64,000 nt of DNA from an uncultured Bacteriovoracaceae bacterium (GCA_964477895.1 CAYZFQ010000003.1:122243-186242), one strand, 5' to 3'. Positions 21,562 to 60,084 are shown, counted from the first letter of the stretch. Numbers and translations: made by a program. The notes: generated from the sequence alone by a model not told the origin.

Positions 21562-21602
21562 TTTCTAATTTCTCCTTAATTTTTTACCAGATAGGGCATA
21601 GT

Positions 21603-21632
21603 CAAAAAGCACCCAAAACTCAATGAGTGCTT
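21603..21632 (-). terminator. Hairpin + U-tract between truB and rpsO
   Basis: Minus-strand AAGCAC...GTGCTT 6-bp stem with a 14-nt loop, followed by TTTTT. Lies just after the truB stop. Confidence 0.4.
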
Positions 21633-21633
21633 G

Positions 21634-22617
21634 TTAAAAGTCATCGGGGTCAAAGGGCGATCGCAAAAAGACTCGTCCCAGGCGAACGGGGGGCCCTGGT
21701 TGAACCCAGGCTACGGGCTGAACCTTATCGGGGGCCAGAAGGAGCAAGGGGCGTTCGAGGGTCTCGGGGAGAGGGTAAGCGCCCGTTGCGAGAAGCCGGG
21801 AGGCCTGGAGGGGCTCGAGGGTGTGAGTATCAAAGAGAGACCTCAGGTCATCGAGACCCAGCTGACGAAACCGGAATTCAGGTATACCCGTTAACCCGTA
21901 TACCTGAATTCCGGTGGCCGCCCTCTCCAAAGGAGCGCCGATTTCAAATGGACCTATGGCGCTACGACGCAGGTCCAGCAGCATCCCCGGGAATCCACAG
22001 AGGGCCTCGCCCCAGTCCCGGGCTAGGGACCTGATGTAGGTTCCGGCCGCGACTTGCACCCGAAAGACCCACTCAAGTCCCGGCACCGAAGCGGAACCTT
22101 TTTCTAAAATAAATTCCCGAAGCGATTCATGCTCAATGGAAATAATTTCGGCAGGCCGTGCCGTCATTTCAACTCGTTCCCCCGCTCGTACCCTGTCGTA
22201 AGCTCGCTTACCATCCACCTTAATGGCACTGAGCGCGGGGGGAACCTGCATGATTTTTCCCACAGCCTTCGGTAAAAAATCTTGGATTTTATTTGTAATA
22301 TTTTCTAAATTTAACGAGAGGGGGCTCTCTGGCAAAATCAGCGCTCCCGTTTCGTCCAAACTATCGGAGCTCGCCCCCATAAACATTCGGGCCTGGTAGC
22401 TTTTGTCTAAGCCTGTAAGAGGTGCAAGTAACTTAGTTCCCTCACCAGTCCCGACCAACAATAAGCCTTCGGCAAAGGGATCCAAAGTTCCCGTGTGCCC
22501 AATATTCAATCGGCTTTTTACAAGGGCGCCCGACTTCTGCGCCAAAGTCTTTTTAAATTTGAAAAGGCAATCTTGCGAAAGCAGGCCCTTATCTTTCCAA
22601 ACTAGATAAAGGCCCAC
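21634..22617 (-). CDS. truB: tRNA pseudouridine(55) synthase
   Basis: TruB catalytic motif GHTGTLDPFAEGLL. Contains a 44-bp near-palindrome within its coding frame (see findings). Confidence 0.85.
   Translation of the reverse strand: MGLYLVWKDKGLLSQDCLFKFKKTLAQKSGALVKSRLNIGHTGTLDPFAEGLLLVGTGEGTKLLAPLTGLDKSYQARMFMGASSDSLDETGALILPESPLSLNLENITNKIQDFLPKAVGKIMQVPPALSAIKVDGKRAYDRVRAGERVEMTARPAEIISIEHESLREFILEKGSASVPGLEWVFRVQVAAGTYIRSLARDWGEALCGFPGMLLDLRRSAIGPFEIGAPLERAATGIQVYGLTGIPEFRFRQLGLDDLRSLFDTHTLEPLQASRLLATGAYPLPETLERPLLLLAPDKVQPVAWVQPGPPVRLGRVFLRSPFDPDDF
21871..21914. repeat. 44-bp near-perfect palindrome (17-bp perfect arms around a GTTAAC centre) inside truB
   Basis: CCGGAATTCAGGTATAC (21871-21887) and GTATACCTGAATTCCGG (21898-21914) are exact reverse complements. 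The central GTTAAC is also palindromic. 40 of 44 positions are symmetric. Confidence 0.8.
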
Positions 22618-22620
22618 CGC

Positions 22621-25485
22621 TTAGGCGCTCGGTTGGGCAGAGCTCAGAGTTCCTTCGATCTCTTCAACGGTATAAGCCTCGATAAAATCACCTACTTTGA
22701 TATCGTTGTAGTTCTCAATGGACATCCCGCACTCAAAACCTTCCGCCACTTCTCGGGCGTCATCCTTAAAGCGTTTGAGTCCAGAAAGTTTGCCCGTGTA
22801 AATAACTCGGTTGTCGCGAATAAGTCGCACAGTATTAGACCGAGCAATTTTGCCTTTGACCACCTGACAACCGGCTACTGCGCCGACCTTCGTGATCGTG
22901 AAGACGTTGCGAACCTCGGCCCGACCCTGCAAGGTCTCCTTGAAGGTAGGATCCAACATGCCCGACATGGCTTTGGTCACATCATCCAACAAATTGTAGA
23001 TGATCGTGTACTGCTTCACTTGAACACCTTGAAGCTCAGCCATATTTTCGGCCTTGGAATCGGCCCTCACATTGAAAGCAAAGATAATCGCCTTAGACGC
23101 AGAAGCTAAGAGAACATCGCTCTCTGATACCCCACCCACGGCCGCAGCTAGGATTTTTAGTTTCACTTTGTCTGAAGGTATTTTCAACAGCGAAGCCTGA
23201 ATGGCTTCGGCGGAACCCTTGACATCAGCCTTAATGATGACCGGAAGTTCTTTCACTTCACCGGCCGTCATCTTAGAATAAATATCTTCTAGAGAGAGCC
23301 CCTTTGTGGCTTCCGTGCGTTTGGCACTTGCCCGGAACTCAGCCAACTCCCTAGCCGACTTTTCATCCGCCAAGGCATTGAGAGAATCACCGGCTTCCGG
23401 AACTCCACTCAGACCCAAAATTTCCACAGGTGTGGAGGGACCGGCTTCCCGAATATTTTTTCCCTTATCATCGATGAGCGCACGCACCTTACCGGTGAGT
23501 GATCCCGCCACGACAAAGTCGCCCACTTGTAATTTTCCTTGTTTGACCAAAACGGTTGCCAAGGGTCCACGACCTTTGTCGAGCTTGGCTTCCACAATCA
23601 CGCCTTCAGCAGGGCCTTCGGCTCGAGCCTTAAGACTCATCATTTCAGCTTGGAGTTGAAGCATCTCTAAAAGTTTGTCTACGCCCAAACCGGTTTTGGC
23701 GGAGACAGGAACGAAGATCGTCTCCCCACCCCAGTCTTCCGATAGCAATCCAAATTCCGAGAGCTGTTGACGAAGTCTATCGGGATTAGCGTCCGGTAGA
23801 TCCATTTTATTCATGGCCACAATAATCGGAACACCCGCGGCCTTCGCATGGTCGATCGCCTCGCGAGTTTGAGGCATCACACCCTCACTCGCCGCCACCA
23901 CCAAAATCACAATATCCGTGACCTTAGCACCGCGGGAACGCATGGCTGTAAACGCCGCATGGCCGGGAGTATCTAAGAAAGTAAGGCTCTCTACGTGAAC
24001 TTTGCTATCAGAAGAAGCACTTTTAGCAGGCGCCTTCTCTTTTCGATCTTTTTTGACTTTTTTATCTTTGTCTTTAGTGGCGGCTTCCGCTGTGAAGGCC
24101 TGGAGATTTTTAATCGCATCGGCCACCGACACCGTATAAGCCCCGATGTGCTGAGTGATTCCACCCGCCTCACCTGAAACGACTCGCGCCCGGCGAATCA
24201 TATCAAGGAGTGAGGTTTTGCCGTGATCCACGTGACCCATGATGGTCACTACCGGTGAACGAGGGGTCTGCCCTTCGTCTTCTTCTTCGCCGGCATTCTC
24301 AGCAATGAAGTCGTCTTCCCGGAAAGTTTCGTCGCGAATCTCAAAACTAAATTCCGCCGCTAAAAGTTGGGCCGTTTCCAAGTCGAGTAGCCAGTCTTCT
24401 AAATGTTCCACATCGGGTTCTTCAACCCCCATGCTTTTGAGCTTTTTAACCACTTCATGAACCTTCACGCTCATTTGGTGGGCGAGGTCTTCCACAGAAA
24501 TGCGGGAGTCAAAATCAACCAAACGTTTGTGCGCGGCCGACATACTTGTTGAAGCATGGGAACTTGAGCCTCGGCCCAAGGCTAAGCGTTTTTTCTTGGG
24601 TTGATAGACGCGTTCCCGACGCAAATAATCCGTAGACTTGAACATGATATCATCTTCGCGAATCCGAGGCCCCAGAGAAGATTTCTTTTTACGGCTTTCC
24701 TCATCCGCCAATTCTTTTTCCAGAAGGGCGGCCGCGGTTTTGCTAAGTTCCGGATCGCTAAAGGTTTTGGGAACGGAGGGACCTTTTTTTGTGGGAGCTT
24801 TGTAGTTTGGCGAAGCTTCCTCAACAATGAGAGGCTTCGCTCTTTGCACTGGCTCTGTAGAAACCACACGAATTACACTATAGCGAGGACCCCGACGCAC
24901 AGCCACTACAGGGGCCGCAGGTGTAGCCGGAATCACTGTGCTTTCTGCCAAAGATTCAACCTCAGGAAGAGACTCAGTACTTTCTCCTACATTTAGGCTC
25001 TCTAAAGAAACTTCTGTAACCTCAGCTTCCGCGCTTTCCGTTGAGACTTGATTTTCAGCCGATAGCGATGCCACTTCTTCCACCGGATCTAGCGCCGAGG
25101 CTTCAGGACTCAGATTCTCCGGCGCCGCCGCATAGGCGACCGCATCAGAACTTTCTTCCGGCGCCACTTCTGCGATGACTTCCTCTTCTTTAGCAGAAGA
25201 TTCTCTTCGCAAAACCACCTCGGAAGACTTCCGCCGAGCCGCGGAGGCGGCATCTTCAGCGCGCGAAGCCTTAGGTCGACGAGTCACCGCAGACTTCTTT
25301 TTAGGTGAGTCTGAGGCTTCCGGAGGGTTTAAGAAATTTTTGATCTTCTCAACCTGTTCGCCACTCAAATCCGACATATGATTTTTCAACTTCAGATCGA
25401 GTGGTTTAATCTTATCAATGAGATCTAAGGCCTTAATATTGAGCTCCTTTGCGAGCTCAAAAACTTTGATGTTCTCTGTTGTCAT
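22621..25485 (-). CDS. infB: Translation initiation factor IF-2
   Basis: 954 aa. G-domain [17 protein letters not shown]. Low-complexity N-terminal region. Confidence 0.9.
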
Positions 25486-58405: not shown

Positions 58406-58819
58406 TCATTTTACGCCCAGGAACTCAGGCACAAAACTGTGGGGGAGGAGGTCTTTGAGTTTGTATTTGATTTGAATACCGCTCGGATTAGCGAGGAGAA
58501 TATCCATCTCAGGAGAGCAAAACTCGGCCAGCGCCTGCAGGCAGTGCCCGCATGGGGGGACCGGCTTGGGGGCTTCGGCCACGATGGCCAAGAGGGAGAA
58601 TTTCTTTACTCCCGAGCTCACGGCTTTCACGAGAGCGGTTCTTTCGGCACAAATGGCGGCCGGGTAGCTCACGTTCTCTACATTGCAGCCCGTGAAGACG
58701 CCGGAGGATGACTGGAAAGCTGCGCCCACTTTAAAATTGGAATAAGGCGAGTAAGAGAAATTGCGAGCCGCTACGGCTTCTTTCCAAAGAGATTTTTCGG
58801 CATCGGTAAAGGTGGACAT
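58406..58819 (-). CDS. cdd: Cytidine deaminase
   Basis: Zinc motifs CAERTA and PCGHCLQ. Confidence 0.85.
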   Translation of the reverse strand: MSTFTDAEKSLWKEAVAARNFSYSPYSNFKVGAAFQSSSGVFTGCNVENVSYPAAICAERTALVKAVSSGVKKFSLLAIVAEAPKPVPPCGHCLQALAEFCSPEMDILLANPSGIQIKYKLKDLLPHSFVPEFLGVK

Positions 58820-58952: not shown

Positions 58953-59030
58953 TGTAGGAAGTTATCATTTTTTGACTACATACGAATTGAATCGATGAGA
59001 GATGTAGTCAAAAAATGATAACTTCCTACA
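58953..59030. repeat. 29-bp perfect inverted repeat with 20-nt spacer (intergenic, cdd-hemB)
   Basis: TGTAGGAAGTTATCATTTTTTGACTACAT (58953-58981) is the exact reverse complement of ATGTAGTCAAAAAATGATAACTTCCTACA (59002-59030). Spacer is ACGAATTGAATCGATGAGAG. Confidence 0.85.
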
Positions 59031-59106: not shown

Positions 59107-60084
59107 CTACTTGCGAAGCAACTTCGCGGCTTCCACCGCCCAGTAAGTCAAAATAAACTGCGCCCCGGCGCGCTTAAAGCTCAGCAGACTTTCCATAAAG
59201 ACTTTCTGCTCATCCACCCAGCCCTGAGCTGCGGCGGCCTTCACCATCGAGTACTCCCCACTCACATGATACACACCCACAGGAATTGGCGATTCATTGG
59301 TGACCTCTCGCAAAATATCAAGGCAGGGAATCCCTGGCTTAACCAAAAGCATGTCGGCTCCTTGGTCCACGTCGAGCCGCGCCTCCCGTAAAGCCTCTTT
59401 ACGATTGGCCACGTCCATTTGATAAGTTTTTCGGTCTCCAAACTGTGGGGCGTTCTCTGCGGCCTCACGGAAGGGGCCATAAAAACTCGAGGCGTATTTC
59501 ACTGCATATGAGCAAAGGCTAATGTGATTTTTATTATCTTTGTCTAGCGCCAAGCGCATCTTCGCAATCATGGAGTCCACCATGCCGGATGGTGCAATAA
59601 TATTTGCGCCCGCATTCGCGTAACACAATGCCATTTTTTCAAGTCCAGCCAAAGTGGCCTCACGCTCACGCAACTGAGATTCCACATGCATGGGCCCACA
59701 ATGGCCATGACTCGTATATTCGCAGTAACAGGCATCAGCGAATAAATTTACATCGCCCAACTCTTTGCGATACTTTCGCAAAGCTTCGGCCACCGGACCT
59801 TTTTCGTCCCAAGCCTTTTCTCCACCCGGACTTTTGTCGGCGGAATCCACAATGCCAAACAAAATAAAACTTTTAACTCCGAGTTCTCGGGCCTCAGTTA
59901 CAAATTTTAACGAATCTTCCACCGACCACTGGCGCACGCCAGGCATGGAGGAAATATCTCGGCTCTTTGTGTGATTTAGAAATAGAGGAAGTACGAGGTC
60001 TTGGCTGCGCAAAGAATTTTCGGCCACCAGATCTCTTAAAGCAGAACTGCTTCGAAGACGTTCAGGACTATGCATGCCTCGCAT
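59107..60084 (-). CDS. hemB: Porphobilinogen synthase (delta-aminolevulinate dehydratase)
   Basis: 325 aa. Conserved ALAD motifs including active-site lysines. Confidence 0.9.
   Translation of the reverse strand: MRGMHSPERLRSSSALRDLVAENSLRSQDLVLPLFLNHTKSRDISSMPGVRQWSVEDSLKFVTEARELGVKSFILFGIVDSADKSPGGEKAWDEKGPVAEALRKYRKELGDVNLFADACYCEYTSHGHCGPMHVESQLREREATLAGLEKMALCYANAGANIIAPSGMVDSMIAKMRLALDKDNKNHISLCSYAVKYASSFYGPFREAAENAPQFGDRKTYQMDVANRKEALREARLDVDQGADMLLVKPGIPCLDILREVTNESPIPVGVYHVSGEYSMVKAAAAQGWVDEQKVFMESLLSFKRAGAQFILTYWAVEAAKLLRK

Follow-up and report, generated by a model that had tools for sequence, protein, structure and literature searches.

The stretch of DNA analysed here (the window) is 64,000 nucleotides long, derives from an uncultured Bacteriovoracaceae bacterium and carries a gene for tRNA pseudouridine-55 synthase, truB, within the gene order infB-truB-rpsO-pnp (Table 1). 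The product scores 155.4 bits against TIGR00431 (cut-off 151.45) and 124 bits against PF01509, and in an alignment of the GHxGTLDP motif, which holds the catalytic aspartate, residues G40, H41, G43, L45, D46 and P47 are invariant and T44 is nearly so, whereas T42 is not. The end of infB lies 4 nt before the truB start (22617-22621) and rbfA is absent between the two genes; the corresponding order in E. coli is nusA-infB-rbfA-truB-rpsO-pnp. Embedded in the 3' part of truB is a palindromic element of 46 bp, built from two arms around a symmetric centre.

Table 1. Features of truB and of the palindromic element within it, with positions counted from the first letter of the window.
Feature	Position	Strand	Remarks
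truB, tRNA pseudouridine-55 synthase, 327 aa	21634..22617	-	TIGR00431 and PF01509 matches; host of the element
Palindromic repeat element, 46 bp	21870..21915	-	Coding strand ACCGGAATTCAGGTATACGGGTTAACGGGTATACCTGAATTCCGGT; copy of a dispersed family
Left perfect arm CCGGAATTCAGGTATAC	21871..21887	.	Holds hexamers 1 and 2; exact match
Right perfect arm GTATACCTGAATTCCGG	21898..21914	.	Holds hexamers 4 and 5; exact match
Hexamer 1, GAATTC	21874..21879	.	1/78 letters off consensus in 13 family copies
Hexamer 2, GTATAC	21882..21887	.	1/78 letters off consensus in 13 family copies
Hexamer 3, GTTAAC, symmetry centre	21890..21895	.	0/78 letters off consensus; its TAA closes one frame
Hexamer 4, GTATAC	21898..21903	.	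0/78 letters off consensus; in the half not fixed by the search patterns
Hexamer 5, GAATTC	21906..21911	.	GGATTC in 5/13 copies elsewhere
Element-encoded peptide TGIQVYGLTGIPEFR, TruB residues 235-249	21871..21915	-	Sole stop-free frame of the element

On the plus strand the element reads A CCGGAATTCAGGTATAC CC GTTAAC CC GTATACCTGAATTCCGG T, and its single-arm sequence is CNGGAATTCAGGTATAC. The initial annotation of this DNA had reported a near-perfect palindrome of 44 bp (40/44 positions symmetric) with 17-bp arms that are exact reverse complements of one another. The palindrome is real and the arms are as described, although the whole was slightly understated: an outer A/T pair lengthens the arms to 18 bp and brings the symmetric positions to 42 of 46, the sole asymmetry being the CC/CC that flanks the GTTAAC centre. 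The same annotation held that such a structure is not expected by chance, and this is borne out by 20 first-order Markov shuffles of the window, in which the longest perfect inverted repeat (loop of up to 12 nt) measured 9-11 bp as against 18 bp in truB. No further match to the arm at up to 3 mismatches occurs within the 64-kb window. The element carries sites for EcoRI, BstZ17I and HpaI (GAATTC, GTATAC and GTTAAC) in addition to CCGG; restriction-site avoidance or a decoy role was rejected, as the observed/expected ratios of the three hexamers in the window are 0.92-1.84.

An origin on the spot, whether by chance, through template switching or the correction of a quasi-palindrome in truB, or as an artefact of assembly or library preparation, would be in keeping with the perfect arms and the single occurrence in 64 kb, which resemble a young local inverted duplication. 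It would also be in keeping with a Logan contig of SRR13208906, which carries the identical sequence and breaks inside the palindrome, but de Bruijn assemblies tend to end inside palindromes. The full truB gene, identical and with its palindrome, is present in the Logan assembly of SRR13208889, the exact TruB protein is also found on a 313-kb NCBI contig, and three independent records read through the intact gene with homologous sequence on both sides. Other genomes and metagenomes, from separate projects, have the palindrome at unrelated loci in copies that are 92-94% identical (see below). The shuffles and the copies elsewhere rule out chance and local origin, and the independent records together with the related copies from unrelated projects rule out an assembly artefact or a synthetic linker, so that we give explanations of this kind practically no credence.

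Two further features of the window were noted. The 3' end of truB is, as had been remarked before, unusually GC-rich: no 400-nt segment of the 64 kb other than the 3' third of the gene reaches 58% GC, and this third, at 21600-22100 (truB codons about 200-320), has 59-64% GC and a GC3 of 0.60-0.65, as compared with a GC3 of about 0.50 in the remainder of truB and its neighbours, and this patch yields a spurious antisense ORF of 135 aa (21627-22034, plus strand). A chimeric truB was rejected as its source, the N- and C-terminal parts of the protein sharing the same best homologues. The patch is real yet not connected to the element; the latter sits in the middle of it and not at its edge. Secondly, an unrelated perfect inverted repeat with 29-nt arms (TGTAGGAAGTTATCATTTTTTGACTACAT and its complement) and a 20-nt loop, longer than the truB palindrome, is located at 58953-59030, intergenic to the minus-strand genes at 59107-60084 and 58406-58819.

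TruB was compared with 27 full-length homologues of Bdellovibrionales type that are 40-49% identical to it. The orthologue alignment proposed in the initial annotation does show the segment to be extra relative to these homologues, since its columns are filled almost solely by the query TruB; the linker from the conserved GPF motif to the start of the C-terminal domain is 30 aa here, whereas the 27 homologues have 12-29 aa with a median of 13. The closest truB relative in the databases is only 49% identical, so that the comparison supplies neither an empty truB site nor a boundary at the level of nucleotides. Similarity to solved TruB structures covers residues 2-228 only. In an AlphaFold2 model derived from this alignment, pLDDT averages 89.2 and drops below 50 in a single stretch, residues 228-244; the final catalytic-domain strand (212-221) precedes this stretch and the initial strand of the C-terminal domain (249-253) follows it. 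From the position of this minimum, the element-encoded peptide is predicted to form a disordered loop of about 15 residues between the two domains.

The palindrome lies in frame in truB, as had been stated, and is read there as ACC GGA ATT CAG GTA TAC GGG TTA ACG GGT ATA CCT GAA TTC CGG. This corresponds to the frame TGIxVYxLTxIPEF, the only one of the element that is free of stop codons; because the element is symmetric it is open in either orientation, whereas one of the other two frames always meets the TAA of GTTAAC and the other usually a TGA. The impression that the protein has partly accommodated the palindrome arises because any genic copy that survives must use the open frame. A word-indexed search for the peptide gave one unrelated candidate (L014 being an unrelated CATACAGG microsatellite) and an exhaustive profile search gave a single unrelated protein of 864 aa with multiple repeats, matched in 11 stretches, results to be read with the limit that a motif of 15 residues lies below the significance attainable in such searches.

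The truB element is a member of a dispersed family, of which at least 13 near-identical copies were found at no fewer than nine unrelated loci. A scan of one genome per species (185,579 species) with a pattern of both arms located one other place, the spacer between flgN and flgK in the metagenome-assembled genome (MAG) Bdellovibrionales GFS_12268 (L003), where the copy is 92-94% identical to that in truB while the two loci otherwise share no similarity. A metagenome scan with one arm plus the centre detected 7 further loci, and an nhmmer profile search added a second copy at L005 and a tandem array of three copies at L010; against the family profile the truB copy itself scores 58 bits (E 9e-17). 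The arm is thus not unique, as the search for further copies suggested in the initial annotation has established, and the homologues of TruB do not encode the same peptide from non-palindromic codons. All named hosts are Bdellovibrionales or Bdellovibrio, and five loci can be traced to genomes of Bdellovibrionales type; two of the loci (L004 and L006) belong to a single MAG, RIFCSPHIGHO2_01_FULL_40_29, and a neighbouring gene at L008 clusters with a Bdellovibrio sp. protein. The contigs that bear the element span 38-51% GC. With one copy in the 64-kb window, one in related contigs totalling about 65 kb and two pattern matches in more than 1 Mb of one MAG, the copy number per genome looks low, although both scans used exact patterns, which makes these counts lower bounds biased towards intact left halves.

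A phage or plasmid origin was rejected, as no family member is found in IMG/VR, INPHARED or PLSDB. Three IMG/VR matches to the core GTATAC-GTTAAC-GTATAC are A/T-flanked terminator hairpins without the GAATTC arms; the contigs L012 (12603-12628) and L013 (268-293), for example, contain only the GGTATACCGGTTAACCGGTATACC core with A7/T7 flanks, an ordinary bidirectional terminator hairpin.

The copy in the window is the only one located within an ORF. All others are extragenic, usually at a distance of 3-110 nt past a stop codon or the 3' end of a tRNA: the copies at L008 and L009 and one of those at L005 (L005a) lie 36-109 nt past stop codons, those at L003, L015 and L019 lie 3-4 nt past the flgN stop, the L006 copy is 13-14 nt past a tRNA-Leu, the L004 copy is situated between the 3' end of a gene of the 23S_rRNA_IVP family and the 3' end of a tRNA-Glu, and the L010 copies fall between convergent genes for an outer-membrane protein and an integrase. 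The three tandem copies at L010 (936-1143) have a 32-nt spacer and a period of 78 with 85% matches, and the array adjoins the outer-membrane-protein gene and the 3' end of the tyrosine-recombinase gene. At L007 and L008 a tRNA 3' fragment stands beside the element with no tRNA gene following. L007 (960-980) shares with L004 (5500-5520) both the spacer and the 10 nt at the start of the tRNA-Glu 3' end (TGGCGTTCCC), and L008 (700-730) shares with L006 (385-410) the 10 nt at the start of the tRNA-Leu 3' end (TGGTGCGCGA). These fragments look like displaced tRNA 3' ends at the far junction of tRNA-integrated islands, or else the element may carry a short piece of flanking tRNA sequence along when it moves.

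The flgN-flgK spacer allows carriers and non-carriers to be compared at an orthologous site. L003, L015 (FlgK 95% identical) and L019 (87%) carry the element, and L016 (88%) lacks it, with a clean 46-nt gap directly past the stop codon; in L017, L020 and L021 (FlgK 81-83% identical) it is also absent, with other short sequences in its place. Because of the clean gap in L016 relative to the carriers, the element is gained or lost as a unit at this site. The comparison of filled and empty sites reveals no evident target-site duplication. TA flanks the element on the left in 5/12 cases and on the right in 8/11, but could be no more than a continuation of the palindrome.

Several other observations were made at this locus. 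The spacer (L003 1525-1572; L015-L021) is a hot spot for small insertions, L017 containing a 35-nt insert with a GGTTCG...CGAACC hairpin. Just downstream are a conserved hairpin with an AGGATG loop and a second AGGATG at the ribosome-binding site, which look like candidate CsrA-binding sites; csrA-fliW is located a few genes downstream of the spacer. Within the element, the 2-nt spacers of the three orthologous copies differ at 4/12 positions, compared with less than 10% in the adjacent intergenic flank. Each lies within a CNNG tetramer (CCGG, CTGG, CCAG, CAGG or CGGG) and the changes are mostly transitions. It is possible that they result from cytosine methylation and deamination at CCGG-like sites, or from template-switch correction between the arms.

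Alignment of the family copies reveals a common plan, nn-GAATTC-nn-GTATAC-nn-GTTAAC-nn-GTATAC-nn-G(A/G)ATTC-nn, in which five self-complementary hexamers are held in a strict 8-bp register. The hexamers are almost invariant whereas the 2-nt spacers vary freely: in the half of the element that was not fixed by the search patterns, 5/156 hexamer letters are off consensus as against 31/78 spacer letters (Fisher 1.3e-12), and among the orthologous flgN-flgK copies the corresponding figures are 1/30 and 4/12 (p = 0.018). Only about half of the cells show complementary spacer pairs, and the covariation signal is weak (0.151 versus 0.110 in shuffles, equalled by 24/500 shuffles), from which it appears that helix stability alone is not what the family conserves. 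The constancy of the hexamers over genomes of 38-51% GC, combined with free spacers, would suit a recognition site under selection better than a selfish repeat in decay.

It is conceivable, on these grounds, that the element is mainly a recognition module for a DNA-binding protein of the host or of a plasmid, kept by selection wherever it occurs, either an operator-like array of five dimer sites or a site for recombination or chromosome organisation, and that the truB copy is a translated functional site. The self-complementarity of each hexamer, as dimer sites would have, the poor pairing of the spacers and the low copy number are in line with this reading, and so are a tyrosine recombinase 84 nt away at one locus and the four loci that adjoin tRNA 3' ends or 10-nt tRNA fragments. 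Against it, neighbouring genes differ at every locus and no candidate binding protein is linked to the element, three position-specific types of hexamer would be needless for a single repeated dimer site, and the 46-nt indel reflects movement of a block and not construction from local sequence. An att site was rejected, as no integrase occurs within about 5-9 kb of the tRNA-adjacent copies at L004 and L006. A recombinase or regulator binding site had been the second possibility raised in the initial annotation, and such a site could underlie the conservation of the hexamers; an integrase, however, is near only 1 of 9 loci (L010). As the main account of the truB palindrome we consider a recognition module unlikely, although it is compatible with the mobile-element explanation developed below and the two are not exclusive.

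A third reading places the role of the palindrome in RNA, with an 18-bp hairpin in the truB mRNA that modulates translation, processing by RNase III or exonucleases, or readthrough into rpsO-pnp. The truB stem is indeed stable (-30.5 kcal/mol; z = -4.2 in a 106-nt context) and all 11 family copies that were folded form hairpins of -15 to -31 kcal/mol, that of the window being the most perfect. The recurrent change of GAATTC to GGATTC in hexamer 5 yields a U-G wobble on one strand, and by inspection this is the sense strand of the upstream gene in 4/5 cases. Most copies are found in 3' untranslated regions, and REP hairpins in such regions are known to protect mRNA; the wobble-compatible change leaves some scope for a 3'-UTR hairpin function of the intergenic copies. 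However, the element is dispersed among unrelated genes with no tie to rpsO-pnp, lacks a U-tract, is not flagged by a terminator scan and has no Rfam match; the weak covariation and the conservation of hexamer sequence are unlike what a pure helix requirement predicts, and a hairpin inside an ORF is unwound by each ribosome. The earlier proposal of an RNA structure tuning rpsO-pnp readthrough has consequently found no specific support, and we regard an RNA-level role as the basis of the truB palindrome as very improbable.

In our view the palindrome in truB is probably a tolerated in-frame insertion of a small, non-autonomous, REP/MITE-like repeat that belongs to a Bdellovibrionales family. 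An in-frame unit of this type was the first of the possibilities offered in the initial annotation, and it is supported by the homologues that do not have the segment, the copies at unrelated loci and the indel at an orthologous site. The element would be moved in trans by an enzyme recognising the conserved hexamers, and in this instance would have landed in the variable linker that leads from the catalytic to the C-terminal domain of TruB. Use of the stop-free frame would keep truB open, the enzyme gaining a disordered surface loop of about 15 residues. At flgN-flgK the insertion adds a net 46 nt, a length not divisible by 3, so that the event in truB would need an additional adjustment of 1 or 2 nt. 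It seems likely that the insertion was tolerated at this site rather than useful. More tentatively, one may envisage a minimal mobile palindrome spread throughout the Bdellovibrionales, whose hexamers are kept by selection for their recognition by a dimeric protein of their own (transposase, recombinase or operator binder, for example of the ribbon-helix-helix type) and which can be exonised into essential genes through the one frame that is open in either orientation.

The family has not been described previously: Rfam holds no match to the element even at permissive thresholds, our literature search retrieved no paper with its sequence, and the Bdellovibrio genome papers that were searched mention no such repeat. 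[quoted passage not shown] REPs number in the hundreds per genome, share a GTAG-type head that is conserved, and go together with transposases of the RAYT type (Y1 transposases). Like the REPs and BIMEs of gamma-proteobacteria, the family consists of short imperfect palindromes that are mostly positioned just past genes, are sometimes in tandem (L010) and would form stable hairpins in transcripts. It differs from them in an apparent density of about one per tens of kilobases, in having as its conserved parts five hexamers at 8-bp spacing, and in that the window copy is genic, in truB, whereas all others are extragenic; no GTAG-type head is conserved at the element ends and no RAYT occurs among the annotated neighbours.

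REPs and many MITEs are typically located downstream of genes (PMC10969869). MITEs are non-coding, dispersed elements with terminal inverted repeats, a preference for intergenic or 3'-UTR positions and stable stem-loops (PMC10969869, section 2.1). The element is likewise short (<500 bp), is composed of inverted-repeat halves and has no ORF of its own, and it is dispersed, varies in presence at an orthologous site and is TA-flanked in many copies, which invites comparison with Correia elements and other IS630-derived MITEs with TA targets. It is, however, shorter than those sizes of MITEs that were found quoted, 178-235 bp for Chunjie and about 190 bp for QMITE2 (PMC10969869), and amounts to two abutting 23-bp arms. 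Its conservation, moreover, extends across genomes of very different GC and is not confined to one genome. Of the target-site duplication expected of a MITE the filled and empty sites give no clear sign, and no parent IS or transposase with matching ends was found beside the copies. The DDE_Tnp_1 IS at L008, the sole IS beside any copy, was rejected as parent because its ends are unrelated.

RPEs are normally non-coding palindromic repeats that are also found in frame in unrelated housekeeping genes, leaving the host gene open (PMC10969869, section 4.2). The truB copy shares with them its in-frame position in a housekeeping gene and a conserved element-encoded peptide (TGIxVYxLTxIPEF, in the predicted surface loop). 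In contrast, RPEs are about 100-150 bp long, occur in Rickettsia only and reach dozens of in-frame copies in each genome, whereas the present element measures 46 bp, is unlike RPEs in sequence, belongs to Bdellovibrionales and has one known in-frame copy, the others seen being intergenic. The truB copy would therefore seem to work like an RPE without being a member of that family. The SDRs (small dispersed repeats) of heterocyst-forming cyanobacteria, reportedly described by Elhai and co-workers in 2008, are comparable as very small palindromic mobile repeats (tens of bp) that can insert in genes without destroying them, but their sequence and host are unrelated and they are abundant and self-nesting, neither of which is seen here. 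A final parallel, which is one of analogy only, is provided by the metboxes of MetJ, where two to five self-complementary boxes with one consensus are bound in an 8-bp register by cooperating ribbon-helix-helix dimers. The strict 8-bp register of self-complementary boxes is common to both, whereas the element has three different hexamers at fixed positions, moves as a block and has no known cognate protein.

On the practical side, the element breaks short-read assemblies and, owing to its EcoRI, BstZ17I and HpaI sites, could be mistaken for a cloning linker. It also offers a very small and well-defined object of study, with 46 bp, one open frame and five fixed hexamers. That these are constant while the spacers vary freely, together with the low copy density, suggests a sequence-specific partner protein, and finding this protein would explain how so minimal an element is moved or retained. 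To our knowledge, Rickettsia provides the only textbook example of conserved enzymes that carry a selfish palindrome in frame, and a second, unrelated case in the predatory Bdellovibrionales would make this route to new protein segments more general.
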